Part shown: positions 40,305-54,736 of the stretch, piece by piece
Position numbering within the stretch: the first letter of the stretch is position 1
Layout: every line of letters begins with the position of its first letter
Origin: Candidatus Bathyarchaeia archaeon
GTDB taxonomy: Archaea; Thermoproteota; Bathyarchaeia; TCS64
Reading direction: 5' to 3'
DNA: 54,736 nt
NCBI GenBank assembly: GCA_050014495.1
Contig: JBEKDF010000018.1
Span: forward strand, 1-54,736
Position numbers and translations under genes: made by a program
The notes under the pieces: model-generated
What the model saw: only the letters and a program-made list of their open reading frames with translations
Told to the model about the DNA's origin: nothing
Database searches by the model: none

Positions 40305-40381
40305 GGGATCGTGGTCTAGCTTGGTAAGATTCGTGCCTGGGGCGTACGAGTTCGTGAGTTCAAATCTCACCGATCCCACCA
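40305..40381 (+). tRNA. tRNA-Pro (GGG), intronless, CCA encoded
   Basis: Acceptor stem GGGATCG/CGATCCC, D arm GTCT/AGAT, anticodon arm CGTGC-CTGGGGC-GTACG, T arm GTGAG-TTCAAAT-CTCAC, then ACCA. Confidence 0.95.
40354..40381 (+). repeat. attL (tRNA-Pro 3' end)
   Basis: GTGAGTTCAAATCTCACCGATCCCACCA, identical to 49468-49495. Confidence 0.92.
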
Positions 40382-40385
40382 TTTC

Positions 40386-41315
40386 ATGAACCCACTGCTG
40401 TTATCTGGGGTCTCGGAGCAGAGTTATAATCAGCAGGTTGTCCTGATCCTTGAGCACAGTTTTTGGCTGAAGAAGCAAGGATACAGGGAGTCAACGGTTT
40501 CAACCGCAACACACTCCCTGAAGGCTTTGGCTAAGGGCTGCGACCTGATGAACCCAGAGGATGTTAAGGAGAACATTGCTTTTAGGCAGGTCTCGGAAGC
40601 CCAGAAGGAGAAGCTATGCAGCGTTTATGACAGATACTGTAAACAGCACAGTTTGATCTGGTCCATCCCCAAATACCGAAGGGTTACGAGGCTTCCATAT
40701 GTCCCGAAACAGGACGATATCATTCTTCTGATAAACGCCCTATCCAGAAGGCAGGGCACATTCGTTCAACTCATAATGGAAACGGGAGCTAGGGCGGGAG
40801 AGGTATGGCAACTAAAATGGATCGACATCGATTCAGAGAACAATGCGATAACAATCAACAATCCTGAGAAGAACAGCAATCCCCGAAAACTAAGGGTGTC
40901 GAAAGCCCTGATCGCCAAGCTGAACGCCCTGACCAGAAAATGCCCATGTGTCTTCAAGGTTCAGGAGAAAAGCAACTTCCTGAGTTTCGCAAGGTGCTTC
41001 TATAAGGCTAGGCTTCGGATTGCGGAAGAACTGAAAAACCCCAATATTGACAGGATCAACCTCAAGAGCCTAAGACACTTCAGGGCTAGTCAGATATACG
41101 CCCAAACCAAAGACCTCCTATATACCCAAAGGCAGCTCGGGCATCGATCAATCTCATCAACGATGGTCTACGTGCACCTTACCGAGTTCGAGGAGGATGG
41201 ATTTTTTATTGTCAAGGTTGCAGGGGATTTGAACGAGTTCGTAGGACTGATTGAGAGCGGGTTTGAGTTCATTTCGGATTATGATGGTAAGAAAGTATGT
41301 AGGAAACGGAAGTGA
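40386..41315 (+). CDS. tyrosine recombinase/integrase
   Basis: 'ETGARAGE' (R), 'EKNS' (K), 'KSLRH', 'LGHRSISSTMVYVH' (H, Y); starts 5 bp after the tRNA. Confidence 0.93.
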   Translation: MNPLLLSGVSEQSYNQQVVLILEHSFWLKKQGYRESTVSTATHSLKALAKGCDLMNPEDVKENIAFRQVSEAQKEKLCSVYDRYCKQHSLIWSIPKYRRVTRLPYVPKQDDIILLINALSRRQGTFVQLIMETGARAGEVWQLKWIDIDSENNAITINNPEKNSNPRKLRVSKALIAKLNALTRKCPCVFKVQEKSNFLSFARCFYKARLRIAEELKNPNIDRINLKSLRHFRASQIYAQTKDLLYTQRQLGHRSISSTMVYVHLTEFEEDGFFIVKVAGDLNEFVGLIESGFEFISDYDGKKVCRKRK

Positions 41316-41321
41316 CTGGGC

Positions 41322-41441
41322 TTGAATGATGATTCAATCGTTCAAGGGTTTGTTGAAGGGGTAGGTTTCGCCCTAAAGGTGCTGAGTGTCCTATTCCTTG
41401 TTGGGTTGGCTGTTGTGATCTTCTTTATCATTTTTCATTAA
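41322..41441 (+). CDS. 39-aa single-TM microprotein
   Basis: TTG...TAA reading MNDDSIVQGFVEGVGFALKVLSVLFLVGLAVVIFFIIFH directly after the integrase; below the ORF-track cutoff. Confidence 0.45.
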   Translation: MNDDSIVQGFVEGVGFALKVLSVLFLVGLAVVIFFIIFH

Positions 41442-41489
41442 CTTGAAACGTCCAAATCTTTATAGGAACCTCCAGATAAAATATTCAGT

Positions 41490-42056
41490 ATGGACCCAAC
41501 AGCAATTATCGCTATAGCAATATCATTTCTAAGCATTGTATTCATATTGATAACTCAAGGACCAGATCAAATAACTAAGTTTAGAGAATCGGCAGATACT
41601 GTGAACAGACGTGAAAAAATAAATAGTTGCTTACAAAAAGAACTGATTGAAGAGTTACAAGAAAATAAAGAAAATGGTATCTTCGATTTAGAACCGGATG
41701 GAATAGAAAACAGAGAAAAAATAGATGATTTAGAATATTTCGGATTTACCATTTTTGTTGTGAATAATATCAGCGAAGATATACTAAATAAAATAATGCA
41801 AAACGCAAAAAACGCTCTCAAGAGATTTATTTATTTTAGTTTTGTTGTGACATTAACTTTGGTGATTTATATAAGCACAGATGTAACAAGTATTTTCAAT
41901 AATTTTATGTTAGCAGTTTACGCTGGGTTTGCTTTAGTTCTTGGATACATGATGTATGATAGTACCCGTAAATATTCGAATCTAAAAGAAGACTTCATTA
42001 AACTATACGAAGACCCAACTATCGAAAATGCTAGAGAAATATATTATAAGATATAA
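41490..42056 (+). CDS. hypothetical membrane protein (element cargo)
   Basis: Three TM segments; AT-rich. Confidence 0.65.
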   Translation: MDPTAIIAIAISFLSIVFILITQGPDQITKFRESADTVNRREKINSCLQKELIEELQENKENGIFDLEPDGIENREKIDDLEYFGFTIFVVNNISEDILNKIMQNAKNALKRFIYFSFVVTLTLVIYISTDVTSIFNNFMLAVYAGFALVLGYMMYDSTRKYSNLKEDFIKLYEDPTIENAREIYYKI

Positions 42057-42079
42057 GTATAAAAAGTGAGTATCCACAT

Positions 42080-42874
42080 TCACGCAATGGTTCTATTTTG
42101 AGATTCTCTGTGTCGGGATAATTCCCTTTCTATATCTTTTAATTCTTCAGCAATATCTTTGAGAGACCCTTCAGTTGTGTAGAGTATGTCTTTATATAAT
42201 TCTAAATTTAATATCATTGAATCCTCATATTTTATACCTTCATTATCTTCATAGTTAATTTTCGCATTAAATATTAATGGATATTTCTCGGGAGTTTTCT
42301 TATTTCCCTCATAATAATTTATTGAACCATCAAAAATCTGCTTAATTTCCTTTCCAGCAATCATTGTTTTTATGCCTTGTTCAAATAAATAACCTTTAGA
42401 TAGATTTCTATCGTTAGTATCTATTAATTCAGGTGTAACCTGAAATGTAATATTTTTAGCCAAACTTTTTCCTTCATTTCTTATTACTAGATTGATTATC
42501 GAATGTCCAAAGGGAATATCAAAATCAATAATAATTTCAGGTCGGGACTGAGCTATTCGAGATAATTTCATCTCATCAACAGTCTTGAATGTCAATAATG
42601 CTACCACAAGGGTAGCTAATATCCCAATATTTTGGATTTGATTGGGTATAAGTAACCAAATAAATGCAAATACTATCATATTTAATCCAAATAATAAGTT
42701 AAATAGATTTTCCGATTTTCTATTCTTAAAGTGTATTAATTCCATAACTAAAATGCCTAGCACTATTCCTAGTAGTGTATATATTGCGGACCAAGCAGCT
42801 ACGGGTAAAAGTGCAATTATTTGCTCTATATCAGTCAACTCATTAACCTCTAGCTTAACTTTTTGTCTGAACAA
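42080..42874 (-). CDS. hypothetical membrane protein with a soluble beta domain (element cargo)
   Basis: Three N-terminal TM segments, then 'RP.I.IDF...IRNEG...AKNI'. Confidence 0.65.
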   Translation of the reverse strand: MFRQKVKLEVNELTDIEQIIALLPVAAWSAIYTLLGIVLGILVMELIHFKNRKSENLFNLLFGLNMIVFAFIWLLIPNQIQNIGILATLVVALLTFKTVDEMKLSRIAQSRPEIIIDFDIPFGHSIINLVIRNEGKSLAKNITFQVTPELIDTNDRNLSKGYLFEQGIKTMIAGKEIKQIFDGSINYYEGNKKTPEKYPLIFNAKINYEDNEGIKYEDSMILNLELYKDILYTTEGSLKDIAEELKDIERELSRHRESQNRTIA

Positions 42875-44091
42875 TAAGTATAAAAATCAATCGTTCAACA
42901 TCCCGCCTTATCAAGCCACTTGCGATATCGTTAGTCAATATTGTATGTTCATGTTAATTCTGGGGTGATGCCGGAGGGTAAAATTGAGCCTTATATATTT
43001 TGAATGAATTGGCATAATAATGAGTATTCAAGAAACCATGGTCATAGGGATTAATCATATATGATGGATAGGTTGATATGTGCAGATAGGTTAATCAAGG
43101 AATTGTGCAGTTGATTTAAATTTAATTTATTTCTGATAGGGTGGGAGGTGAGCTAAGGTTTGTGTCCATAGTTTTGATACTTCATTCTTTAAGGTGTCGA
43201 TCTTAGTTCGTAGGGATTGACCAAATAAGCCCTTAAACGGCTCAGATAGGCATTTTTAAGCCCTATTAGACGAACCATTAAATCCCATGAATTGATCGTA
43301 TAAGCTGTATTATCGTATTAATTGGAGAATTAAGCAATATTAACGTCCTAAATCACCAATCCGTAAGAGCTGAGAAAATCAATTAGATAGACACTGATAA
43401 CGCCCAAGTCTAAAGGGTCAAAAATAGCGATGATTTATTTCTGTAACACACTCTTTTATTATATTGAAATCGTCTATCAAAAAATTTATATTTATTTAGT
43501 GTGCCATTATGTATGTGGTAAGTAGAGTGTGCAGGTTACTCTTGACAAATGAGAAAATCACTACTAAACAGCTTAGTAGAAAATAGATTGATAACCAAAA
43601 ACTGTACCTATACCCTTCCTCCAAATCATACATATGAGCCAAACCGGAAATGGTTTTCGGAAAGAAGTTGGCGACATACCGCCAAACACATACGAATTCC
43701 TAGGAAAATGATCATAAGAGGAACTTAGGAATTATCTGGAAAATCTCATACCATCAAATCATTATCTGGAATTAACTAAGCCTAAGTTCTATCCACCTTT
43801 CTGGTCTCAGAATAATATGCATTTCATTGGAAGGGGTAGGGGGGATATAATATACATATATATAATCTACATATATTAACTTCCCTACGCAGCCTTAGTG
43901 TCTGAGCGTTAAGGCTATAGGAATTAGCATCTTATCTTATTATTTTATAATTTTATATCCATTGTTTTTCACTATTCTCACCTTTCTAACTAACTCACGC
44001 TAAGACAACAAAGTTTGTCCACATCTAGAGGGAGAAGGGATAATGTTTCTTGTCGAGAAGCCTCATAAACGCTGAACATGACCCACTAACC

Positions 44092-44967
44092 ATGAGCGAA
44101 GAAGACGACACCTACTCAACGATTTTCACAGCCCTCAAACATCCTATCAGGAGGAACATTCTGAGGCGTCTCAGTATCTCATCAGCAACTTACACAGAGT
44201 TGCTTAACGAGCTAGGCATTGAGAACGGGCTGCTAAACTATCACATCGAAAGCTTACATGAACTCATACGCAAGAGGGAAGACGGGACATACACACTGTC
44301 AGAGTTTGGACTAGCAGGGTTGAACCTAATAAAAAGGATCGAAGATCCAGTCCCAACCCAAACCGATAGGTACCATAGAAACCGCTCTCTTCTACTTCAA
44401 GCTCTAAGTGTACTGCTAATAATCGCCCTTTCAGTAAGTAGTTGGTCATTTTATTCAAGTAATCAGGTTCTCAAATCCGAGCTGAGTAATCAGCAGAGTC
44501 AAATCGAGACGATACAAACTAACATTCAAGCTTACACATCGCTCTTCGACTCAAACATCACCCCGCCAGTATCAAAGATCGAAGCAATAGCCAAGGCTCT
44601 TTCAAGCGATGGATGGAACTCAACAACTCTCAGAGGGTTGGTGATTGAAGCTTCACTGACTTACGTAAGATTCTTTGTAGCAGATAATGGAGGTATAGGC
44701 TTCCAGTTCCTAAATAGCGTCACTAAACCTATGAATGATTACTCTCCCAAAGCCGAGTATAATGTCACAGAAACAGGAGTTTATCCACCGATCAAGGGGA
44801 CGGTTTGGCATAGGTATGTATGGACTGTCATCGTTCATGAGTCAGGTAATTTTAGGGGAATTCCACCTCCCGGTTTGTATTGGGTGGATGCCAGCACGGG
44901 AGAGCTGTTCAAGGATACCGGAATTGGGATACGGGCAGTTCCTCCTTTCAACCCGTTAACTCATTAG
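44092..44967 (+). CDS. ArsR-like wHTH plus TM plus extracellular domain protein
   Basis: 'IFTALKHPIRRNILRRL...LNYHIESL...YTLSEFG', then a TM segment; ATG at 44092 preferred. Confidence 0.8.
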   Translation: MSEEDDTYSTIFTALKHPIRRNILRRLSISSATYTELLNELGIENGLLNYHIESLHELIRKREDGTYTLSEFGLAGLNLIKRIEDPVPTQTDRYHRNRSLLLQALSVLLIIALSVSSWSFYSSNQVLKSELSNQQSQIETIQTNIQAYTSLFDSNITPPVSKIEAIAKALSSDGWNSTTLRGLVIEASLTYVRFFVADNGGIGFQFLNSVTKPMNDYSPKAEYNVTETGVYPPIKGTVWHRYVWTVIVHESGNFRGIPPPGLYWVDASTGELFKDTGIGIRAVPPFNPLTH

Positions 44968-45006
44968 CCCGTAGACAATTAGGAAATCTGATACAATGAG
45001 TCTACC

Positions 45007-45237
45007 TTACCAAATCCTCATGGGTTCGACCCTTTTCATAGCTTCATGGAGTGAATCGCCCTGAAGCTGGTCCCGCTTTTCACAAAACAATAGATAAATC
45101 GCCTTCAATTTTTCTAATGAATCGGTCTCGGCAAATTGCACATTGTATTTTTTGAGCTGCCTCTTATAGTAGCCAATAGCCACCCTTTCACGCTGCCTAA
45201 TCTTATTTTCTTCATCTGAATATTTTTTAGGTTTCAT
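45007..45237 (-). CDS. small basic hypothetical protein
   Basis: 76-aa ORF co-oriented with the upstream operon. Confidence 0.55.
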   Translation of the reverse strand: MKPKKYSDEENKIRQRERVAIGYYKRQLKKYNVQFAETDSLEKLKAIYLLFCEKRDQLQGDSLHEAMKRVEPMRIW

Positions 45238-45244
45238 GTTTTAA

Positions 45245-45967
45245 CTAATTTTTCCACACTAAGCCCCTACGATCAAATGGCTTATTTTCAATAGAATATC
45301 TAAAGTTGAATGGGGGACCATCAAAAACCCCATTATCAGTTAATCTATCTTTCAATCTATCATTCAATTCTATTCTATTATCATTTATTCTATCAATACT
45401 ATATATTCTATTAATCAATTTATCTATATATCTAATATTACAATTAACTAACGTACTACGATTATACTTATTATATTTAACTACCTTATTTTTTATGAGA
45501 AATAGTAAACATTTTATGTGCTTATGCAATTCCAATTTGATTAATTCCTGATTATCTATAGTGACCTGTTGTGATAGTTGCCATAATATTATACCTTTAG
45601 ACCTTAGATATTTTTTACACTCTTTAGAGACTTTGGCACTTGTTACCAATATGCGAATTTCCCCGCCCAGCTTATTATCAGTAAATGGGAGTTCGTGTTT
45701 AGACTCAAACCATTGAGGGGTCAGGTACCATCCATTAGGGTTAAAGTTTTTTACCTCTATGCATATAGGATAATTATATCCCTCAATTCTCAAGCGTATA
45801 TCTTCGCCTCTTCCCTTGTTTACTCTATAGGAATCTAGACCTTGATCACTATTATTTTTCATATATGTGATATTATCAAAGTTTTCTCTCAGTGCATTAA
45901 CTAACACACTTTCACCTAGAAACCCTTTAAGATTCCAATCTTGGTTTACACTTGATATTATCAACAT
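45245..45967 (-). CDS. PD-(D/E)xK nuclease-fold protein
   Basis: 'GFLGE', 'GEDI', 'IEVKN' catalytic pattern; low-complexity C-terminal tail. Confidence 0.65.
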   Translation of the reverse strand: MLIISSVNQDWNLKGFLGESVLVNALRENFDNITYMKNNSDQGLDSYRVNKGRGEDIRLRIEGYNYPICIEVKNFNPNGWYLTPQWFESKHELPFTDNKLGGEIRILVTSAKVSKECKKYLRSKGIILWQLSQQVTIDNQELIKLELHKHIKCLLFLIKNKVVKYNKYNRSTLVNCNIRYIDKLINRIYSIDRINDNRIELNDRLKDRLTDNGVFDGPPFNFRYSIENKPFDRRGLVWKN

Positions 45968-46026
45968 ATTTTATCTTCCTCCCCTATGCCTAATTTTCTT
46001 TTGGGCTTTTATTGACATATCTAAAC

Positions 46027-46656
46027 TTAACCGCTTACTCCGAGTTTTTCGGAGCAGTTAGGGCAGGTGCTGTGCTGCTGAACGTCAACCATCTGACCAC
46101 AGGAAACACATTGCACCATGTAGAATGGTTCGTTTCTTGCAGAACGGATTTTGAGATCGCCAATCGCCAACTCCTTCAATTCATCCAGCTTCTTCTTGGC
46201 TTCCACATCGCCCTTACGGACCCTCGCAAACAAGTCACTGATCCCTTCAGACATGGTATCGTAGACCATATCCTGTGGGCTTTTGCCGTAGTCGTTTAGC
46301 TTTGTGACACCTCCGCCACGCTTGCTGTCAGCCCCTGCATTCTTCTCAGCCCGACCCTGAAGGAATTCTGGGATATCCGACTGCTTCATTTCCCCACGTT
46401 TGATCTTCTCCTGTAATAGCCCCTCTGTAATGGTCTTTAGCTTGGTCGAATTCTCCTTTTCCTTATCAAGCTGATTCTGCAAGTCCTGCTCTATCTGAGT
46501 CCTATCGAGAACTATGTTGAGGTTTGAATTGCTTGTGCCCTCCCACTTATCGTTGATATACTTATAATCTATGGTTTTGCCGTCAACTAATAGGGATGTA
46601 ACGCTGCCGTCCTTTGGTGCGTTCTCTAGTTGCTTCATAATATCGTTAGTATTCAT
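46027..46656 (-). CDS. coiled-coil protein with C-terminal Zn ribbon
   Basis: Helical charged core; CVSC...CPNC. Confidence 0.65.
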   Translation of the reverse strand: MNTNDIMKQLENAPKDGSVTSLLVDGKTIDYKYINDKWEGTSNSNLNIVLDRTQIEQDLQNQLDKEKENSTKLKTITEGLLQEKIKRGEMKQSDIPEFLQGRAEKNAGADSKRGGGVTKLNDYGKSPQDMVYDTMSEGISDLFARVRKGDVEAKKKLDELKELAIGDLKIRSARNEPFYMVQCVSCGQMVDVQQHSTCPNCSEKLGVSG

Positions 46657-47015
46657 TGTTCATCTTTTTCCTCGTTCCAAATATTGATTCCTGCTTCACT
46701 CTTTGTAGCCTCTTCCTCTATCTCTTCCTTCGCTTTTTCTTCGATTATATCTGATTTGAGGTCTATGATGCCTTCTGTGGCGGTCCAGTACCAATCAGGT
46801 CTCGATAGAATTTCATTCAATGTCTCACCTGACCTCAACTTTTCCTGAAGTGCCTTTATCTCTTCAGCATGTTCATCTAAAAAGGCAGACTGCATAGCAG
46901 GAACATATGGGCTTATCAATCTCCATATAGGTTTCCTCGATGCAACTGATATCATCTTTAGCCTCTCGTAAAGCTGTTCAGGCATAGTGACTACTTTCCA
47001 TCCCGTTGGATTCAT
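46653..47015 (-). CDS. ribbon-helix-helix-like DNA-binding protein
   Basis: N-terminal 'WKVVTMPEQLYERLKMIS....PIWRLI' fits a beta-alpha-alpha RHH pattern. Confidence 0.55.
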   Translation of the reverse strand: MNPTGWKVVTMPEQLYERLKMISVASRKPIWRLISPYVPAMQSAFLDEHAEEIKALQEKLRSGETLNEILSRPDWYWTATEGIIDLKSDIIEEKAKEEIEEEATKSEAGINIWNEEKDEQ

Positions 47016-47138
47016 TTCTTAACTGGTATATATAGTAACTATACATCTATAAAAGTCTTATCAATAAATCATATGTTACAATCTTATGATAACGCTTTTA
47101 ACTAACATCAACTATATATCTATATAGTAAGTTAAGAT

Positions 47139-48041
47139 ATGACAAACTTTAATGTTAATGAGACTTTGCTCTCTTCGGCTTTACCTTCAGAACTCCTTCC
47201 ATTTTTACTTTGGAATGAAATATTAGTTGGAATTAAAGCTGCAAGGCAGGTCTTCGGTGAGGCTATAACCATGAGTTCCGTCCTAATCGGTGAGACTGGT
47301 TCAGAAATCTCGATGCCGGTATTGACCAGCGGATTCAGCGTTTCAAGCATCAGCGAATCTGACTTGGATACAAGCGGATACGTTGCTCAGACACCAACAA
47401 TGGACCACTTACAGGTTTTGGTCGGTGATCAGATTTATCTTGCATTTTCCATCTCGGATATCTTGAAAGAGAACAGTCCGAAATACGACTATGTCGCAAT
47501 CTTGCTCAGGGAAGCCGGAAGGACCATCGGTGAGTATACCGATTCCTCAATCCGTGACACCCTGTGGGCTGGTTACGGCAACTCGGTTGGTGCGACTGTT
47601 GCTGGTAAGCTCGCATTCGATGACATCGTGAACTTGCTCCAATTAGAGAAAGAGGACAAGTTCTACCCAGATGATAACACACCTTTCCTCTATATCTCAC
47701 CTGAAGGCGAAGCTGACCTATTGAAAGACAGTCGCTGGATCAACAGCCATAGATACGCAGTCGGCTCAGTGGGCAACATGGGAAGCGACACAGCGGGAGA
47801 ACAGGACATTTATTGCGATTGCCGTGTCCGTGTCACAGAGACCATGAAGGCGGGTTACGCAATGATTGTCTTCAAGAGTCCAGACGACACAGACCCATAC
47901 TCAATATTCGCTTGGAAGCGTCCACTAACCGTCAAGACTGAGAGATCAGAAATGTACGGAAGACAGGCTTGGTACATCTCCGAGAGATGGGGAACAAAGG
48001 TCATGCAGCCCAATTCTGTGGGCTTGATCTCAAATTGCTAA
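47139..48041 (+). CDS. HK97-fold major capsid-like protein
   Basis: 300 aa; E-loop-like 'G.EISMPV...ISES', spine helix '..AGRTIGEYTD..I', 'FDDIVNL', 'LYISPE..ADLLKD', C-terminal 'ERWGTKVMQPNSV'. Confidence 0.7.
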   Translation: MTNFNVNETLLSSALPSELLPFLLWNEILVGIKAARQVFGEAITMSSVLIGETGSEISMPVLTSGFSVSSISESDLDTSGYVAQTPTMDHLQVLVGDQIYLAFSISDILKENSPKYDYVAILLREAGRTIGEYTDSSIRDTLWAGYGNSVGATVAGKLAFDDIVNLLQLEKEDKFYPDDNTPFLYISPEGEADLLKDSRWINSHRYAVGSVGNMGSDTAGEQDIYCDCRVRVTETMKAGYAMIVFKSPDDTDPYSIFAWKRPLTVKTERSEMYGRQAWYISERWGTKVMQPNSVGLISNC

Positions 48042-48072
48042 ATTTTCCACCCACGTTTCCTAAACTGAAACA

Positions 48073-48227
48073 GGCATAAATCATAGGCAAGCAGGATGCC
48101 CGTCTGGTAACAGCGGGAGTGGGTTTCATTCCCCACCGACAGTCCCGCTTCACCAAACACTGGCTTCAGACATGTTACCGGTGAGCCGGGATAGGGTTCC
48201 TAACCTTCCCCTTACCCGGCACTTTTT
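48073..48227 (+). ncRNA. GC-rich multi-stem structured element downstream of the capsid gene, ending in a hairpin plus T-tract
   Basis: Nested stems CTGGTAACA/TGTTACCGG, AGCGGGA/TCCCGCT, GTGGG/CCCAC, and GCCGGG/CCCGGC followed by TTTTT. Confidence 0.45.
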
Positions 48228-48247
48228 ATATGTAATATTTTAGACAA

Positions 48248-49027
48248 TCATGGCGTGTTGAGTTGGGGTAGAGTCGGGGGTTTTATTTTAACTGATATAC
48301 AGCCATTACGTTTTATTGACCAAGCATTTAATGTTTGAGAAATTGCTAATAATTCAGTTGATTCTAAATATGTTCTTAGCGGGGATATATTAACGCCAAC
48401 ATTTTGTTTTTCATATATAAGAAATTGATTTTTTTCCATTTGAGGAACTCCATAAACGTCTAAACCCTTTAATGTTCCCATAAAAGTTATACCTTTTTCC
48501 TTTTTTATTTCAGGACCATATTTAGGAAAAATCATATATTCATCCATTGTTTTCAGGTCGGGATTAACAAAGCTAGTCAATATAGTATCTGCATTTACAC
48601 CATGACCGTTTAGAGATTCTATAGCCTTTTTTCCTTGATCGAATTCTTCTAATGTCCATTCCACTTCTCTAGATCTTGAAAGCAAATCTATAATTTTTAG
48701 AATCTCTTCCAAACTCCATTTATTAGATATATTATGTATTATATATTTTTGCATACGTTCATCTTTGTATGACTCCTCCCAATTACGAATTGCATATTTT
48801 TTTTGCATTTTTACTGATTCTTGGGTAAGCATTCTCGGAGGAGAAATACGATAAATAACCTCCTGACCTGTGCCTTCAATGCTATCATTTACAAGCTCAT
48901 ATATTTGATCAGTATTTTCTACATTAAAATTACACACTCCAAAATATTCATTAAATTTCCTAAATTCACCGATTTTTTTTACAAGTGATTCATTTATTTG
49001 ACTAACAAGTGTTTCCATCTTATTCAC
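48248..49027 (-). CDS. hypothetical protein, possibly a divergent HK97/encapsulin-like fold
   Basis: 'AIESL...GVNADTIL...GTLKGLDVYGVP....QFLIYEK' resembles an HK97 A-domain pattern. Confidence 0.5.
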   Translation of the reverse strand: MNKMETLVSQINESLVKKIGEFRKFNEYFGVCNFNVENTDQIYELVNDSIEGTGQEVIYRISPPRMLTQESVKMQKKYAIRNWEESYKDERMQKYIIHNISNKWSLEEILKIIDLLSRSREVEWTLEEFDQGKKAIESLNGHGVNADTILTSFVNPDLKTMDEYMIFPKYGPEIKKEKGITFMGTLKGLDVYGVPQMEKNQFLIYEKQNVGVNISPLRTYLESTELLAISQTLNAWSIKRNGCISVKIKPPTLPQLNTP

Positions 49028-49033
49028 CCATAA

Positions 49034-49315
49034 TCATTTTTTATTCCTTGTTTCAATATCTTGTATTTTAGTCATTATATCATTCATTAAAAATGCGATT
49101 CTAATTAGCAATTGATTTTGTATGAGCATATCAGCGTATATATCTCTATTATCAAAAGAGGATGAATCTAATTCGCCTTTTTTCACTTTAGACCAAAGAC
49201 CATTTAAATTTTCTAATTCGGGTATAATTTCATCGTTTAACGCTTTTTTCATCAAGGGAATTTGAGGGTTAGACATGTTTAAATGAAAACCGGGGAGGTT
49301 AAAGAACGTATTCAT
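49034..49315 (-). CDS. small helical hypothetical protein
   Basis: ORF ending 6 bp upstream of the 48248-49027 gene. Confidence 0.5.
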   Translation of the reverse strand: MNTFFNLPGFHLNMSNPQIPLMKKALNDEIIPELENLNGLWSKVKKGELDSSSFDNRDIYADMLIQNQLLIRIAFLMNDIMTKIQDIETRNKK

Positions 49316-49467
49316 TAGTTAATTGAAAAACGGAGTCTTCTGGAAAGTGAAATTTCTTCACCATTCTTATTTCAGAAAACCTTCTTATCTCAGATTGAGT
49401 TTCTTCTAAATGGTCATCATGTTACCGATTGACCGACACGAGGAAATCACTCCGAGTGGGGGTCACG

Positions 49468-49495
49468 GTGAGTTCAAATCTCACCGATCCCACCA
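49468..49495 (+). repeat. attR (duplicated tRNA-Pro 3' end)
   Basis: 28/28 identity to 40354-40381. Confidence 0.92.
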
Positions 49496-49503
49496 ACATA
49501 TTA

Positions 49504-49515
49504 ACCGATCCCACC
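49504..49515 (+). repeat. second partial att copy
   Basis: ACCGATCCCACC repeated 8 bp after attR. Confidence 0.65.
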
Positions 49516-49641
49516 TAGAGTTGATCGGGTTTTCTGAAGAGTCTGACACCATCAACCTCAGTGACATATTCGTAGCCCTTTGCGATGAGCTCCTTCGCCT
49601 GATCTACGGTTGATGCTTCTCGGCAGTCGAAGTGTGTCTGT
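49515..49641 (-). pseudogene. C-terminal stub of a second tyrosine integrase
   Basis: 'FDCREASTVDQAKELIAKGYEYVTEVDGVRLFRKP' aligns by eye with the tail of the intact integrase, 'FIVKVAGDLNEFVGLIESGFEFISDYDGKKVCRKR'. Confidence 0.7.
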
Positions 49642-50429
49642 GCGCGCGCCTCGATGATGACTCCTATGTTCAAACTAGGATTGCTCAGTATCAGGCGTCT
49701 CTCGATGAGAGAGCTTTCACAATAGCGAAGAGTTTCGTAACTGCGAAGATTGAGAGTCAAAACATTATTCTGCGTAAGTATGGGCTTGAGCCTCACCTCG
49801 ACGACTTCAGGGATGCAATCGATAGGAGTGAGGCGAAGAGCCTCGAATTATTAAGGCGGAGATTAACAGGAATCGAGGGGAAGCATACCCAGCGATATTA
49901 CAAGCAGATTTTCGGCCTCTTCCCTGAGAAGCTTAGACCTGAGAAGAGGGAGGGATTCATGACCTACGATGGCGTAAATAATCTGTTTAACTTATCCTAT
50001 GAGATTCTCGCGTGGAAGATTCACAAGGCCCTCGTTAGGGCGAAACTTGAGCCGTACCTCGGTTTCCTTCACAGTAACCAGATGGCTAAACTCAGCTTGG
50101 TCTGTGACTTTCAGGAGCTTTATCGCTATCTGATCGACGACTTCCTGATTCAATACAGCCAAAAAATAAGCAAGAAAGATTTCAAGATGAAGACCGAGTC
50201 TGCGAGTCACGGAAAGAAGGGCAAACGTGAATATCTGACAGACTCCGAAACTAAGACTCTGCTCGATGAGCTTAACATGTTCTTCGAGTCGATAGTTGAA
50301 GTGAAGCGGATTAGAAACGGTGAGCATCAGACACTTGAGACACTAATCAATGAGGAGGCCCTCTTATTCGCGAAGTATCTCAGAGGAGAATTTAGGAGAT
50401 GGGTTCCTAGAGTGCCAAGTGGGATCTAA
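49642..50429 (+). pseudogene. cas1: solo Cas1 (casposase-like), N-terminally truncated
   Basis: 'TRIAQY', 'AKIESQ', catalytic E in 'GIEG', 'DGVNNLFNLSY', H in 'PYLGFLH', 'SLVCDFQELYR'; the N-terminal beta domain is missing. Confidence 0.85.
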
Positions 50430-50493
50430 TATTTACTAAAAACACCAAACTTAATGGGCTTAGACCACAAATTTTTGAACCAATAAATAATAG

Positions 50494-51741
50494 ATGCTTA
50501 CTTGGTACTTTGTGCCGAATCGTTTCGCGTTTCTTCAAACAGTGCCTAGAGACGCGAAGATTCTAATATTCTCAAATGCCTTTCGGAGCTTTAGCTCCGC
50601 TATACTCGCCGTAGCATTTCCTATCTATCTCAGCAAGATAGGTGTCTCCTCAGTCCTCATCGGGCTAACCTTCATGGGGATCATTCTATTCTCCGCCGTC
50701 AGAAGTCTGATCGAGGGAGTCATCGCGGATCGGTTAGGAAGAAAACCCGTACTCATCTTTATCGCGGGCAGCCTCGTAATCGGAGGCGCAATCTTCGTGG
50801 CGACGACGAGTATCACAGTTCTACTCATCGCCGCTGTACTATTCACGGTAGGTGGATCAATCACCTATACCCCCGCCGAGATTGCCCTGTTAGGGGACAA
50901 GGTAAGTGACGAGAATCGGACGATGGCCTATAGCATCAACGCGACACTTGCGACGGCGGCCAGCATACTTGGCAGCTTCGCTGGAGCAATACCCGAAGCA
51001 CTTCAGAGACTCGGCTTTCCCGAGATTTTAGCTTACCAGCAAATTTTCGTTATCTTCGCAGCCGTTGGAGTTATTTGCATCGTGCTCTTCGCACTGATTA
51101 AGGAGGTCAAACCAGAGCACAAGCTAGTCGACTCCGCGCCTCCAACCGAGCAGGACATCAGTGAGAGGAAGTTCTTGCTGAGGTGGAGTAGCGTGGTCGC
51201 CTTAGATGAGATAGGTGGCTCCTTCAACAACCTCCTCAGCTACTGGTTCTACCTTCGATTCGGGGTGGGTCCCGCTGAAATAGGTCTAATCACGGGACTT
51301 GGCAACCTTATTTCGACGGTTAGCTACGCTCTCGGCTTGAAGATGGCGAAGCGTTACGGGACTATTAGAGCTACCGTAATGAGTCGGGTTCCTATCTTTC
51401 TCATAAACTTCCTTACACCTTTCATGCCGAGCTTCGCGATCGTAGCTGCCAGTCGCCTATTCATGAGCGTGTTCAGCAACATCGATGTGCCGCTGAGGCA
51501 CAGCTACATCATGGGCGTCACACAGAGTAAACAAAGGGCCTCGACTTATGGGGTTATTCAGGTGGTGAGCAGATTCACGTCTGCTGGTGCACCGGCTATT
51601 GCTGGGTATCTCTACGAATTCGTGAGCTTATCATTTCCCTTCTACGGGGCTGGCTTCTTCCAATTCGCGTCAGCGGCGACGATGTACTTATTCTTCAAAG
51701 ACATAAGGCCGCCAGAGGAGAAAACGAAGAATCCAACTTAG
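50494..51741 (+). CDS. MFS transporter
   Basis: Motif A 'GVIADRLGRK'; 12 TM segments. Confidence 0.92.
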   Translation: MLTWYFVPNRFAFLQTVPRDAKILIFSNAFRSFSSAILAVAFPIYLSKIGVSSVLIGLTFMGIILFSAVRSLIEGVIADRLGRKPVLIFIAGSLVIGGAIFVATTSITVLLIAAVLFTVGGSITYTPAEIALLGDKVSDENRTMAYSINATLATAASILGSFAGAIPEALQRLGFPEILAYQQIFVIFAAVGVICIVLFALIKEVKPEHKLVDSAPPTEQDISERKFLLRWSSVVALDEIGGSFNNLLSYWFYLRFGVGPAEIGLITGLGNLISTVSYALGLKMAKRYGTIRATVMSRVPIFLINFLTPFMPSFAIVAASRLFMSVFSNIDVPLRHSYIMGVTQSKQRASTYGVIQVVSRFTSAGAPAIAGYLYEFVSLSFPFYGAGFFQFASAATMYLFFKDIRPPEEKTKNPT

Positions 51742-51937
51742 ATAAATAATGAGTGAGCGCATTCTATCGAAAGCAATTCAAGCAATAATTGAAAGGTGAT
51801 GAAGATTCTCGCTAGAAGACTATCTTACATTTGTGTGTGTGTGTGGCCATAGACTTATCCCCCAAACCCAAACACAAAACATTTTATTTCGATTGAATGT
51901 GTAGTATTTACTGAGGAAATGGGGGGGAGGTGTCAAT

Positions 51938-52372
51938 ATGGTGAAGGTTGAGGAGAGTGTGATGATTGACCGCCCCGTCGAGGAGGTTTGGAAGTTCATA
52001 GCTGACCTGTCAAATGTCCCGAAGTGGGAACCAGGTGTCCTCGAAGCGAGGCTGACTTCCTCAGGGCCAATCGGGGTGGGTTCCACGTGCGAGATAATAC
52101 GAAAAGATATGACACTTCCGCAACGGTGCATTGAGTATGAGCCCAACCGAAAGCTCTCTTTCGTGGTCACCTCTGGGCCAGCGAAGGGAACCGTGGTTGG
52201 CTTCGGTGTGGAGGCCGTTGAGGGAAAGACCAGATTCACCTCGGCCGACGACGTGAAGTTTGATGGCTTCTACAGGCTGCTCGCGCCTTTTGTTACGGGG
52301 GGCTTGAGGAGAGAGGGTGTAGCCACCGTCGGCAACGTGAAGCGCGTACTGGAATCGGAAGCGAAGTCATAG
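51938..52372 (+). CDS. SRPBCC (START-like) family protein
   Basis: 'IDRPVEEVWKFIADLSNVPKW', 'EYEPNR'. Confidence 0.88.
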   Translation: MVKVEESVMIDRPVEEVWKFIADLSNVPKWEPGVLEARLTSSGPIGVGSTCEIIRKDMTLPQRCIEYEPNRKLSFVVTSGPAKGTVVGFGVEAVEGKTRFTSADDVKFDGFYRLLAPFVTGGLRREGVATVGNVKRVLESEAKS

Positions 52373-52400
52373 GATGAAAATCAAGCAACAATCTTCCTGA

Positions 52401-52433
52401 GTTAGAGTCAGGTTGAAGTTTAGATAAGGCTAT
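52401..52433 (-). repeat. conserved ~33-bp unit of the paralog array (minus-strand copy)
   Basis: Reverse complement ATAGCCTTATCTAAACTTCAACCTGACTCTAAC; similar to 53586-53618 and 54240-54272. Confidence 0.7.
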
Positions 52434-52936
52434 TAAGAAGAGGACCTGAGTTCTGGGTGCTGCCTCTCCGCTATTCGCTTCACAACACCGTACAGATACT
52501 CAAAATGCTCATTCAGCTGCGGGGTATGATGACGAACCCTCCACTGCACTATCACGGGCCTCAACTTCTCCCACATCCCAATAACCCCACTCGAAATCAG
52601 GTCGTCGATGAACCCTGGGCCTATCAGCCTCGTCTTCACGAGTACACCGATACCCTCGAAGTAGTTTGACATGGACCAGAACTTGGCTCTATTGTCTCTA
52701 TCATCCAGGTATTTCCTCTCGAAGTCTTCGTAGTCGGTCCACTTCCACTCATACAGTATCTCCATCCCGTCTCTCATGAAGTCTCCATCATTCATCTTCG
52801 AGTAGATTGGCATGAAGAGCTGTGCCTGCCTAGTCTCAAGCGTGGTCTCCATCACCCTGCTCGAGTTCCTCAGGTTAATTATGTAGTAGGTCGCCGCGAC
52901 CATTACACCTGTAGCTGTGGCTATAGCCGGTAACAT
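52433..52936 (-). CDS. DUF4760-like single-TM protein (paralog)
   Basis: TM, then 'ETRQAQLFM', 'WTDYEDFERKY', 'YFEGIGVLV', 'WEK..P', 'FEYLY'. Confidence 0.75.
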   Translation of the reverse strand: MLPAIATATGVMVAATYYIINLRNSSRVMETTLETRQAQLFMPIYSKMNDGDFMRDGMEILYEWKWTDYEDFERKYLDDRDNRAKFWSMSNYFEGIGVLVKTRLIGPGFIDDLISSGVIGMWEKLRPVIVQWRVRHHTPQLNEHFEYLYGVVKRIAERQHPELRSSS

Positions 52937-52948
52937 GGGGACTAAATT

Positions 52949-53128
52949 ATGAAGTATGAGCCGATCATCCTGGAGTATAGGGGGAGGTACGAGGCGCCTA
53001 CTAAGAGTGGGCTTCACGAAGACTTTGAGGATCTTTACTACTCTATGCTTGAGGAATCTGTGAAGTGGAGGAAGGACTTCGTTGAGAGGAAGGCACTCGG
53101 ATTGAAGCCGATCCCACCCTATCCATAG
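52949..53128 (+). pseudogene. C-terminal fragment of another DUF4760-like paralog
   Basis: Reads MKYEPIILEYRGRYEAPTKSGLHEDFEDLYYSM..., matching the family's 'K..P.I...R......E.FE.LY' tail. Confidence 0.6.
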
Positions 53129-53166
53129 CCTTACCCTCATCATGTGAAAAAAAAGGTATGAGGTTT

Positions 53167-53454
53167 TTATTGTGTTACTATTAGAGTTTTTGCATAATCG
53201 ACAAACGCAGGATCAATATGGTAAAGTTCCATCGCTACCTTGCCGAAATCTTCTAGGGATGCATCTGTTTCAACGCCAATAACTATTTGCTCGACCGTAT
53301 AGTAGGGAGTTCCCCATACCACGATTTTCATCTTATACTTGTTGATGATCTCTTTTGCCTTTGTTGTCCAATTCGGGAAATATTTAACGTCGACTAAATA
53401 CTTTTTGGTTGCCTCTTCTGTCATCTTCACAAACCAAAGATATACATACTTCAT
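53167..53454 (-). CDS. small hypothetical protein (ferredoxin-like/GYD-type fold possible)
   Basis: 95-aa AT-rich ORF flanked by 16-bp direct repeats. Confidence 0.6.
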   Translation of the reverse strand: MKYVYLWFVKMTEEATKKYLVDVKYFPNWTTKAKEIINKYKMKIVVWGTPYYTVEQIVIGVETDASLEDFGKVAMELYHIDPAFVDYAKTLIVTQ

Positions 53455-53585
53455 CTATTTTTCACCATTTTTTTCGAATATTTTAAGATTCATTATTATT
53501 CTATAATAAAAGAATCTCGAATTTATAACAAACAACTAAGTATATAACATTTTCATTAATATTCGTAAATATTTGTATATGGAAC

Positions 53586-53618
53586 ATAGCCTTATCCTCA
53601 CTTCCACCTGAGTGTAAT
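53586..53618 (+). repeat. conserved ~33-bp unit upstream of a paralog
   Basis: ATAGCCTTATCCTCACTTCCACCTGAGTGTAAT; CTTATC lies 41 bp before the TTG start. Confidence 0.7.
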
Positions 53619-53631
53619 CCAGTGACTTGTA

Positions 53632-54243
53632 TTGGTCGATCTAGTTACGCTTCAGTCAATGGCGTATATCGCTCAAGTAGTCGGAGTAGCTGGAACACTC
53701 ATAGCCGCGTTCATCGCGGTGAGAAGCTATACCAACGTGAACAAGCGAACCGAAGAATCCAAGAAGAAGGAGCAGGAGACACGCGACAGGGAACTCGAGA
53801 CCAGAAGGCTACAGCTACTCACAAGCTATAGTGAGCGCCTCTTCAACACGGAGGGCAGCCTCGATTTTTAGGAGCTCATGAACATGCAGTGGAGTGATTG
53901 GGACGACTTCGAGAAGAAGTATGGAAGCGACTTCAACCTCCACAACGGGGCGATTAGGCTCAAGGTCTTCTTCACGTGGGACCTTCTCGGGAGCCTGCTA
54001 CGCGAGAAGGCTGTGGATGCTGAGACCCTGTACAAGCTGAGCTTCCACATGGTCATCTTCCTCTGGATGAAGTTCAAGGGGTATCTGGATTATGAGCGGG
54101 AGCATTACTTCGGGAAGGACTTTCTTGTCGACTTCGAGTACCTTGCTCAGGAGATGCTCAGGATCAAGATGAGGAATGATCCCACCTACAAGGTTCCTGA
54201 GAACTTCATTAGCTATCTTCAGAATAATCAAGCCGTTCAATAA
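53632..54243 (+). pseudogene. DUF4760-like paralog interrupted by one in-frame TAG (53869-53871)
   Basis: ORFs 53632-53871 and 53878-54243 are in the same frame: ...SLDF*ELMNMQWSDWDDFEKKYG... Confidence 0.8.
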
Positions 54244-54272
54244 TCTTATCCTCACTTCTAGCTGACTCTAAT
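54240..54272 (+). repeat. conserved ~33-bp unit upstream of a paralog
   Basis: ATAATCTTATCCTCACTTCTAGCTGACTCTAAT; overlaps the previous stop codon; CTTATC lies 40 bp before the ATG. Confidence 0.7.
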
Positions 54273-54284
54273 TAGTGATGATTA

Positions 54285-54668
54285 ATGGTTGATGCGCAGA
54301 CGATTGGAGTATTGGTGACGGTGGCAAGCGTGACGGTAGCAGCGGTGTACTACATGTTCACCCTACGCACAAACCCGAGAAACTACAAGGCCACACTCGA
54401 CACACGCCAGGCACAGCTCTTCATGCAGCTATTCGACCGATTCAGCGGATCAGAGTTCGCCCTCAACTACGGCAAGATCCGCTACGAGATACTACCCAAG
54501 CTGAACAACAGCCCAGAGGAGCTGAACAAGTTCATCTACCAGAACACAAATGAGAAGTTCAACCCCGAGGTGTTCCTACCCTTCCACCAGCTGACGATGT
54601 TCTTCGACGGCGTCGCGCGCGCTGCCTTGTCCCGAAATTACCCCGATATTGGTTTTAAATGGTCTTAA
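54285..54668 (+). pseudogene. DUF4760-like paralog, C-terminally truncated
   Basis: 'DTRQAQLFMQ...FFDGV', after which similarity to the paralogs stops at CGCGCGCGC (54614-54622). Confidence 0.7.
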
Positions 54669-54736
54669 TTCCCCTCACAGGATTTAATGGCAAATACGGG
54701 CATATCCTAAACACCTCACCTCCTCGTAGAAGCGAT

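Follow-up and report, generated by a model that had tools for sequence, protein, structure and literature searches.

A repeated 26-bp unit as a candidate recombination site between gene cassettes in a family of Bathyarchaeia

One end of a 54,736-nt contig of a Candidatus Bathyarchaeia archaeon (the window; JBEKDF010000018.1) contains several divergent DUF4760-like paralogues joined by a short conserved unit. Is this unit a promoter of one gene family, or the site at which gene cassettes are joined? A first-pass annotation had offered both readings and placed the array beside an integrase/Cas1 hotspot. Its interpretation is partly supported by our analysis. The relevant features of the window are as follows.

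49632..50429, plus strand: stand-alone Cas1, N-terminally truncated (PF01867), 1.4 kb from the G-type site
51832..51879, plus strand: G-type site, mirror-symmetric, with a G/T-rich left arm, core ATAGACTTATCC and a C/A-rich right arm
51849-51860, plus strand: the 12-bp core ATAGACTTATCC of this G-type site
51938..52372, plus strand: START/polyketide-cyclase-like gene (PF10604, E=1.6e-18), cargo flanked by the G-type site and the minus-strand T-type site
52380..52400, minus strand: residual DUF4760 head, a leader with a TTG CTT GAT start at 52388 (from sequence and translation)
52408..52433, minus strand: T-type junction site of 26 bp (profile score 34 bits; inverted repeats I1 and I3)
52433..52936, minus strand: DUF4760 paralogue, N-terminally shortened and without its own 5' site (PF15956, E=3.4e-13)
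52949..53128, plus strand: C-terminal fragment of a DUF4760 paralogue with a degenerate site at its end (own profile 133-170, E=4.4e-5)
53125..53136, plus strand: degenerate core ATAGCCTTACCC, right arm lost (from sequence; under the profile threshold)
53167..53454, minus strand: reverse-oriented 95-aa cargo gene with homologues on contig C34 and in loci L016 and L019
53586..53611, plus strand: T-type junction site, consensus copy (48 bits; bridged by contigs of runs X1 and X6)
53632..54243, plus strand: DUF4760 cassette gene interrupted by a single in-frame TAG at 53869 (own profile)
54240..54265, plus strand: T-type junction site that provides the TAA stop of the upstream gene (37 bits; bridged in all four runs examined)
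54285..54614, plus strand: DUF4760 paralogue, its 3' part replaced by a multi-copy element at about 54615 (own profile, E=1.7e-30)
54615..54736, no strand assigned: end of the multi-copy element, opening with a (GC)n run and 100% identical at the ends of C12, C24, C27, C33 and C40

Full copies of the unit were confirmed at 52433 (minus strand), 53586 and 54240, and the copy at 53125 is degenerate. The sequence at 51849, previously taken for a partial copy, instead belongs to a second, mirror-symmetric site type. CTTATC lies 40, 41 and 40 bp ahead of TTG 52388, TTG 53632 and ATG 54285, and three units overlap the stop codon of the preceding ORF (TAA 52435-52433, TAG 53126-53128 and TAA 54241-54243), as had been described. 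All four ORFs assigned to the paralogue family are recognised by a profile built from this genome's paralogues, and Pfam DUF4760 also detects two of them. Each of the four is damaged: one is shortened, one is a fragment, one has an in-frame TAG, and one has a replaced 3' part. The shortened paralogue (52436-52936) lacks about 12 N-terminal residues, its own-profile match beginning at position 13, and the Pfam scan of the fragment at 52949..53128 gave no hit. The TAG at 53869 is also present in covering contigs from three of four runs, and contig C75 carries an intact cassette, 80% identical to 53632..54243, between different neighbours. The residual head at 52380..52400 extends into the START gene at its 3' end. 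The DNA upstream of the 95-aa gene recurs in other cassettes, being 76-82% like C34 and C24. The multi-copy element at the end of the window is likely an insertion sequence outside the cassette system.

A profile search of the assembly with a threshold of at least 18 bits found 196 copies of the 26-bp unit ATAGYCTTATCCTCACTTCCACCTGA on 50 contigs. Locally shuffled DNA gave one match at 10-12 bits and none above; therefore, a chance origin of the unit is excluded. Addition of the mirror-symmetric variant, which shares only a 12-bp core with ATAGYCTTATCCTCACTTCCACCTGA, raised the number to 241 sites in the genome. The core, ATAGYCTTATCC, carries interchangeable arms. All four combinations of T-type and G-type arms were found (183, 19, 19 and 12 sites), and double-armed G-type sites number 19 in this genome. 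G-type sites have inverted arms around the core, whereas the commoner T-type sites do not. Right-arm matches lie inside a called site in 115 of 116 cases. Positions 4-8 are mostly GCCTT, GTCTT or ATCTT, with ATTTT as a common variant. Rfam gave no match at E<=1 in 49000-54736, and viral contigs contained no exact match to the site. A search for ORB origin boxes found no cluster; this test is uninformative because a motif test for cdc6 found no such gene.

The cassettes between the sites mostly hold a single gene in the same direction (median 642 bp), and 143 of 156 neighbouring site pairs are in direct orientation. They form dozens of scattered arrays, often located in tRNA-flanking islands that also hold integrase genes or their remnants. 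An upstream cassette ends with the left part of the unit, from which it often takes its stop codon; the following cassette begins with the right part, 43-48 bp ahead of the start codon, a distance shared by 71 of the 96 long ORFs that come after a site. A repertoire of DUF4760 membrane proteins only, as first proposed, does not describe the cargo, which also includes unrelated enzymes: 54 of 77 scanned non-DUF cargo ORFs hit unrelated Pfam families. Among these products are GNAT, nitroreductase, SnoaL and hydrolase proteins, which are typical integron cargo. The DUF4760 expansion comprises about 100 divergent membrane-anchored proteins with a median identity of 29%, and the unit is indeed better conserved, at a median of 85% (n=67). 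The DUF4760 fold was predicted confidently (pLDDT 87.6) as a single long helix at the N terminus with a helical domain. Foldseek with this model returned no match at E<=0.001, and its best VIA-align Z of 7.4 is within the range of common helical arrangements.

The gene units delimited by the unit recur elsewhere with different neighbours; therefore, the unit is the likely swapping point. Among 21 homologous whole-cassette pairs, none kept either neighbour, including one within-genome pair in which the cassette body is 96% identical. Similarly, none of 98 pairs with common upstream DNA also had common downstream DNA, although the compared pairs are not independent of each other. Direct arrays whose homologous cassettes change neighbours agree with the earlier proposal of head-to-tail cassettes with breakpoints at the unit. 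On this evidence, we give an even chance to a reading in which the unit joins the gene cassettes of a family-wide system and acts as a recombination site recognised by a protein. Single-gene units would loop out and re-insert at the site, which would be bound by an enzyme acting in trans and encoded away from the arrays. Strand exchange may start in or just right of the core, and the exchange point could slide within shared sequence. Ordinary homologous recombination between DUF4760 heads would add shuffling. New cassettes might arise by fusion of a gene behind an existing head, because 7 of the 21 non-DUF forward ORFs listed begin with MVD, MVE or MADL. Such a system explains the DUF4760 expansion.

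Mobile cassettes could be mimicked by DUF4760 genes that duplicated in tandem and decayed, or by mixed strains in the assembly. In favour of this, all four window paralogues are damaged, contamination of the assembly amounts to 7.5%, and short contigs carry many of the arrays. However, unique stretches have even depth, contigs bridge the joints, and the same array layout is found in genomes of 1, 6 and 30 contigs. Moreover, unrelated genes are bounded exactly and no homologous pair keeps a neighbour. This explanation is already disfavoured, and we consider it very improbable.

A more serious competitor is that the unit is a portable promoter/operator, at first a DUF4760 start module, and that its cassettes move by general short-homology recombination with no dedicated enzyme (RadA, single-strand annealing or microhomology joining between unit copies). 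The geometry fits a BRE/TATA position: TTAT about 39 bp before the start coincides with the second peak of true TATA boxes in this genome, ATAGCC resembles the BRE of tRNA promoters, and most long ORFs after a site start at the distance given above. Microhomology joining is described for archaea (PMC12281630), and one archaeal integrase recombines identical 104-bp stretches (PMC8371274). However, before 959 housekeeping-like genes neither TTATCC (1.4-fold) nor CTTATC (0.9-fold) is enriched, compared with about 5-fold for TTTAAA. TTATCC is not the TATA box of this genome, which is A/T-only. The same 26-bp consensus precedes convergent gene ends (13), gene heads (105) and other contexts (78), and it ends at position 26; the site is also intact before non-coding units. 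The unit is therefore not a plain promoter. The BRE-like half follows the upstream cassette and not the gene that it would drive. The promoter idea of the first-pass annotation is thus kept only in part, for its geometry. Its counter-case, a mere BRE/TATA element in a stable gene order, is not what we found. G/T hybrid sites, in addition, have only 12 bp in common. Taken together, we regard the promoter explanation as unlikely. In the recombination-site reading, the joined halves may also make a weak BRE/TATA-like promoter for forward cassettes.

The position of the exchange was investigated with pairs of related cassettes. Same-upstream pairs keep unit positions 1-5 (0.90 vs 0.74 for random pairs, p<0.001) and do not keep positions 13-26 (0.75 vs 0.74; 27 pairs). 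About one third of the upstream-sharing pairs part only at positions 14-27, and several homologous cassettes have different heads. One cassette end is followed by either arm type (L061 vs L013), a pattern that requires exchange inside the 12 shared bases. A single cut in the core fitted worse, with a joint lnL of −1224, than exchange spread over positions 1-33, with −1179 (39 and 18 pairs). Of two likelihood tests, the first assumed flank-like mutation rates, whereas sharing was free to vary in the second; the outcome of each depends on which pairs are chosen. A nick placed either immediately ahead of position 1 or between positions 14 and 15, as suggested by relaxase and rolling-circle sites, also fitted worse. 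Duplication of the whole unit at insertion was also rejected, as 105 neighbour pairs were uncorrelated. A fixed recombinase cut at the unit is thus not demonstrable. This spread of exchange points, together with the lack of linkage between positions 13-20 and 21-33 in T-type sites, favours the promoter explanation. Only one empty/filled triad was found. No credible circles or alternative joints appeared in eight runs, a weak test confined to assembled contigs; the joints listed from the run layouts are short-sided and derive from paralogues.

None of the enzyme families tested tracks the sites, which also suits the promoter explanation. Tyrosine recombinases are patchily distributed and unrelated from one genome to the next: 14 of 61 genomes lack PF00589, and the PF00589 proteins compared are not related to each other. 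A search of the family found no conserved Xer-like protein, although a very divergent enzyme could be missed; a 330-aa Xer candidate occurs in 7 of 71 genomes. In five genomes, PF00239 did not exceed the cut-off, PF01797 was not found, and PF01548 was present in three; PF16795 exceeded the cut-off in 2 of 71. Resolvase, Y1, IS110, SSV-type and Cas1 families are each missing from some site-rich genomes. The hotspot link drawn earlier is weakened by the tRNA-Pro integrase of the window, which lies 10.5 kb from the nearest site. Its family was rejected as the enzyme: only 2 of its 30 loci have a site within 1.5-kb flanks, and the genus in which this family is commonest has no sites. Homologous integrases are divergent from an array in two places (G002 C34 and G000 C69).

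The type IB topoisomerase is the only tyrosine-recombinase-fold enzyme in nearly all family genomes (38 of 41, including those without an intact integrase). It might nick after YCTT in the core and swap one strand between direct sites, with replication completing the exchange. Poxvirus topoisomerases cleave at (C/T)CCTT (PMC2666729), to be compared with the GCCTT, GTCTT and ATCTT that predominate at positions 4-8. However, the enzyme is equally present in genomes without sites, its gene lies among housekeeping genes, ATTTT is a common variant, and a fixed cut is disfavoured. The only archaeal topoisomerase IB tested showed no consensus (PMC4824112). We consider this route very improbable.

Cas1 presents a different pattern. 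A stand-alone, casposase-like Cas1 without polymerase might insert units with G/T-rich inverted arms and duplicate the 12-bp core, giving CRISPR-like arrays of whole genes with T-type cassettes as non-autonomous descendants. Of four double-flanked Cas1 genes, three lie in units between direct G-type sites whose cores match (L081, L079/L080 and L077; the cores of L015 do not match), and the L081 unit has (CA)n/(TG)n inverted ends. In this genome, 5 of 10 Cas1 matches are within 2.3 kb of a G-arm site. Intact-looking Cas1 copies are on C80, L015, L081 and L082. Units ended by G arms have matching flanking cores in 9 of 20 cases (4.4 expected, p=0.004, one of four classes tested). Among the genomes of the genus, a non-CRISPR-type or fragmentary Cas1 match was found in 5 of the 7 that have G-type sites and in 2 of the 11 that lack them, a count that includes two fragments of unassessed subtype and related, non-independent genomes. 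The casposase of A. boonei duplicates 14-15 bp (PMC6614799). However, T-type neighbours do not show core duplication (50 of 184 matching vs 47.3 expected), and core variants follow the upstream cassette. Cas1 was not found in six site-rich genomes (G011, G005, G021, G079, G069 and G018), it occurs without sites in L078, L082 and C46, and the arms do not match at the last two bases. Cas1 and G-type sites may merely gather in islands. An origin of the arrays by Cas1 insertion is therefore improbable, and the window Cas1 is only a candidate enzyme family.

Multi-copy variants of the unit, each with its genus form, are present in five genera of one Bathyarchaeia family, and 6 of the 17 other genomes in the genus show the G-type pattern. 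In 248 other genomes of the class, the unit was not above background. The freely available papers searched held no description of this site system. About 466 kb of the 3.1-Mb assembly (15%) is within 3 kb of a site; thus, in this archaeal family, abundant in sediment and peat, much of the accessory genome is organised by the site.

The system can be compared with known ones. Like the tRNA-targeting integrative elements of archaea (PMC8371274), the arrays are often in tRNA islands with integrases; however, the homologous integrase here ends at a tRNA gene. Stand-alone Cas1 and the tandem use of a single site recall casposons and CRISPR adaptation (PMC6614799 and PMC6563490), as does the placement of this Cas1 in units whose ends are imperfectly inverted and whose 12-bp core is repeated. 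Unlike casposons, the site-bounded units L015, L077, L079/80 and L081 contain no family B DNA polymerase in their ORF lists (17 proteins scanned), and T-type arrays give no duplication signal. Unlike CRISPR, the "spacers" are whole genes. If stand-alone Cas1 is responsible, casposases would be linked to gene-sized repeat arrays. The pdif/dif modules of Acinetobacter and Xer/dif (PMC6449649 and PMC2958812) likewise have short sites, many per replicon, used in trans and flanking adaptive modules of one or two genes. The G-type site resembles dif in its inverted arms round an asymmetric centre. However, dif modules are flanked by inverted sites where ours are mostly direct, and the T-type site lacks the 11-6-11 symmetry of the 28-bp dif site.

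A close likeness is with integrons and CALINs, archaeal ones included (Ghaly et al. 2022, PMC9668308). In these, too, single-gene cassettes follow each other in tandem and mostly in one direction, each joint is marked by a site, stop codons overlap the site, arrays may lack an adjacent integrase, the cargo is similar, and sites resemble each other within a genome and lineage. In contrast, IntI (TIGR02249) was not over the cut-off in any of five genomes (best 58.8 of 265 bits), attC boxes (RYYYAAC ... GTTRRRY) occur at 3 of 201 sites vs 1 of 201 control windows, and the four window sites form no single-strand hairpin on either strand (z −0.93 to +0.81). The system is therefore not an integron. 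It also differs in its near-invariant 26-bp site, placed before the gene at promoter distance, and in its scattered arrays. Somewhat short of an even chance, it may be an analogue of the integron built from unrelated parts, in which a double-stranded 12-bp core serves as recombination site, stop codon and promoter for an enzyme acting in trans. This would be stand-alone Cas1, the eukaryote-like topoisomerase IB or an unrecognised recombinase, in each case an enzyme not known to shuffle host genes. In a lineage in which neither IntI nor a conserved Xer protein was found here, the site offers a short, testable substrate for finding the cassette-shuffling enzyme. If the integron analogy is true, hundreds of whole genes are stacked like CRISPR spacers.

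Re-examination of the window, which is the whole of contig C18 in a 3.1-Mb assembly, bore out the first-pass annotation of a DUF4760-like paralogue array joined by a ~33-bp unit. Three full units (52433-52401, minus strand; 53586; 54240) and two partial ones (53125 and 51849) are present, CTTATC lies 40-41 bp before the start codon in the full copies, three units begin at the preceding stop codon, and domain and profile searches placed the four ORFs in a single family. All four are damaged: one has lost its N-terminus, another is only the C-terminal part, and a third contains an in-frame TAG at 53869, which three runs also show in their covering contigs; the last is interrupted at 54615 by a multi-copy element. 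In the present population, the joints of the window are bridged by contigs at even depth, and the cassette order looks stable; no credible circular cassette was found in eight of the 21 runs listed, all of them assembled contigs. It is very unlikely that the array is an assembly artefact or mere decay. Other features of the window are as follows:

40305-49400: tRNA-Pro, a tyrosine integrase behind it, and weak similarity to a phage capsid at 47139-48041 (PF25209, E=6e-4); the whole is probably a virus-like element that has integrated
49632-50429 (+): truncated Cas1
49515-49796 (-): ORF overlapping Cas1, its end similar to the C-terminal tail found in the integrase family of the window; the arrangement looks like a fusion scar
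54615-54736: end of the multi-copy element, (GC)n run first; identical copies at five other contig ends

A profile iterated from three window copies (cut-off 18 bits) detected 196 sites on 50 contigs of the assembly, and shuffled DNA yielded one match of 10-12 bits. The conserved stretch spans positions -2 to 26 (ATAGYCTTATCCTCACTTCCACCTGA), with positions 6-12 fixed at 96-100%. A second site type (G-type), exemplified at 51849, shares the 12-bp core with the common T-type and has inverted G/T-rich and C/A-rich arms. Both types together amount to 241 sites, with none in shuffles.

Sides of the 241 sites
Plain left, T right: 183
G left, T right: 19
G left, G right: 19
Plain left, G right: 12
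G left, other right sides: 8

A non-coding unit of ~80 nt, conserved and containing degenerate cores, often lies 5' of a site, in many cases immediately before it, in this genome and three others (G012, G016 and G002). It is laid out as AAAATCTTAWCCCAAA...TTTGG...TAAGCCTCATCT plus a short inverted repeat, and might serve as a favoured insertion point resembling attI or as an accessory binding array. Copies are located at:

C7:91904-91984, C85:3620-3538 and C75:3910-3814 (contigs of this genome)
L001 7196-7278 and L004 10812-10731 (further loci)

Neighbouring sites (pairs at most 3 kb apart) are directly oriented in 143 of 156 cases, with a median spacing of 642 bp. The ORF content of the intervals, called mechanically and counted from 80 aa, is that of mostly single-gene cassettes.

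Site intervals by content
One forward DUF4760-like ORF: 55
One other forward ORF: 29
One reverse ORF: 17
No ORF of 80 aa: 11
Several ORFs: 31

A site lies upstream of 80 and downstream of 68 of the 105 DUF4760-like ORFs. The start codon lies 43-48 bp in, counted from the site, in 71 of 96 long ORFs 3' of sites; among 73 ORFs, 50 end within 23 bp of the next site and 16 take their TAG or TAA stop from inside it. The DUF4760 proteins are 29% identical, compared with 85% for their sites, and 64 of 67 have a single N-terminal hydrophobic helix. Foldseek and VIA-align searches with a predicted model (L093:5668-6264) gave no clear match to known structures; its soluble part aligned weakly with EDS1/PAD4/SAG101 chains of plants (VIA-align Z 7.4 and 7.2; Foldseek E=2.6), a likeness that is not significant for a helical bundle. 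Among 112 non-DUF ORFs, 77 were scanned with Pfam: 54 had matches, including GNAT, nitroreductase, SnoaL, PNPOx, hydrolases, methyltransferases and transporters, and none was a recombinase. A DUF4760-like beginning was found in 7 of 21 non-DUF forward ORFs.

Cassettes have moved singly. The comparison covered 581 distinct sites, drawn from this genome, relatives and metagenome loci; 98 pairs had common upstream DNA, and downstream DNA was common in none. There were 22 whole-cassette homologous pairs, several from one cassette family and hence not independent; one was the same contig twice, and neither neighbour was kept in the other 21. In the 14 pairs inspected, including the window cassette 53586-54239 and its C75 homologue, the flanks were present and unrelated and the bodies 80-96% identical. 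One empty/filled triad was found.

The breakpoints are within the unit. Positions 1-5 remain common in 27 upstream-sharing pairs (0.90 vs 0.74), positions 13-26 are at background, and 12 downstream-sharing pairs show significant sharing only at positions 27-33. This retention, and the absence of linkage between the left and right blocks, initially suggested a cut in the core; T/G hybrids after one and the same cassette end also require exchange inside the 12 common bases. However, a mixture fit to 39 pairs assigned ~65% of partings to positions up to and including 13 and 30% to positions 14-27, a spread over positions 1-33 was a better fit than the core by itself (lnL -1179 vs -1224), and the heads of homologous cassettes were often swapped as well. 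Therefore, a single fixed cut in the core is disfavoured. Core variants of T-type neighbours matched no more than by chance. Where both ends of a unit carried G arms, its cores matched in 9 of 20 cases vs 4.4 expected (within-genome comparison, one of four classes tested, p=0.004), which is consistent either with duplication of the target or with a requirement that overlaps match.

The position of the unit is promoter-like, and the BRE-like hexamers of tRNA promoters are similar. A promoter combined with short-homology exchange is a possible, though rather unlikely, explanation. The genome's own TATA boxes resemble TTTAAA, and 959 genes remote from sites showed no enrichment of TTATCC in front of them; the consensus stops at position 26 in every context group. 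Since the 78 sites that lack a gene head and the 13 that precede convergent gene ends have the same consensus, the unit is more than a DUF4760 start module. It may well be a recombination site recognised by a protein; cassettes would then pass through circular intermediates, and the site could double as a promoter.

Family-by-family profile searches, a loose first look that could miss a divergent enzyme, did not find an enzyme that would act on the site. Tyrosine recombinases number 13 in this genome and one in the six-contig G012, and Pfam detected none in G021, G015, G011 and G018; a separate alignment search added a single partial gene (G021) and remnants (G012). Those that were compared across genomes are mostly unrelated. 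A homologous integrase diverges from the array in a classic integron layout in G002 (C34) and this genome (C69), ending at a tRNA gene in the former and broken in the latter; of the 30 loci in its family, 28 had no site in their 1.5-kb flanks. C69 carries a chimeric ORF (668-1846), which joins in frame a zinc-ribbon tyrosine integrase (N-terminal half) to a ketopantoate-reductase-like gene (C-terminal half); the intact reductase-like gene is a cassette on C29. The IntI, resolvase, Y1, IS110 and SSV-type families failed as general candidates, and no conserved XerA-like recombinase was found family-wide. Among DNA-joining families, only stand-alone Cas1 recurs beside G-type sites, but it is absent from six site-rich genomes and is an improbable agent. 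Units of 3-7 kb that carry stand-alone Cas1 and lack a polymerase have as their boundaries direct G-type sites whose cores match:

L081 6294-10973, with (CA)n/(TG)n inverted ends
L077 7433-14319, with a weak Shedu SduA-like match (E=8e-4)
L079 18465 to L080 1839

Topoisomerase IB, present in 38 of 41 family genomes whether or not they have sites, is a most improbable agent. A second copy lies on a short contig of G027 (L240).

The exact 21-mer (two mismatches allowed) is present in 13 of the 17 other genus members and in none of 43 genomes outside the genus. Genus variants of the site precede DUF4760 and unrelated genes in other parts of the family, among them the one-contig genome G021. A degenerate pattern occurs 4-98 times in 20 of 52 other family genomes and no more than three times, the reversed-control level, in 248 other genomes of the class. 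The G/G type was detected only in the genus (6 of 17 other genomes).

Our literature search found no published description of this system. Integrons, pdif modules and casposons (PMC6614799, PMC6563490) each fail at least one defining test here. The site use in trans recalls pdif modules (PMC6449649), and the layout is the same as that of integron arrays (PMC9668308).
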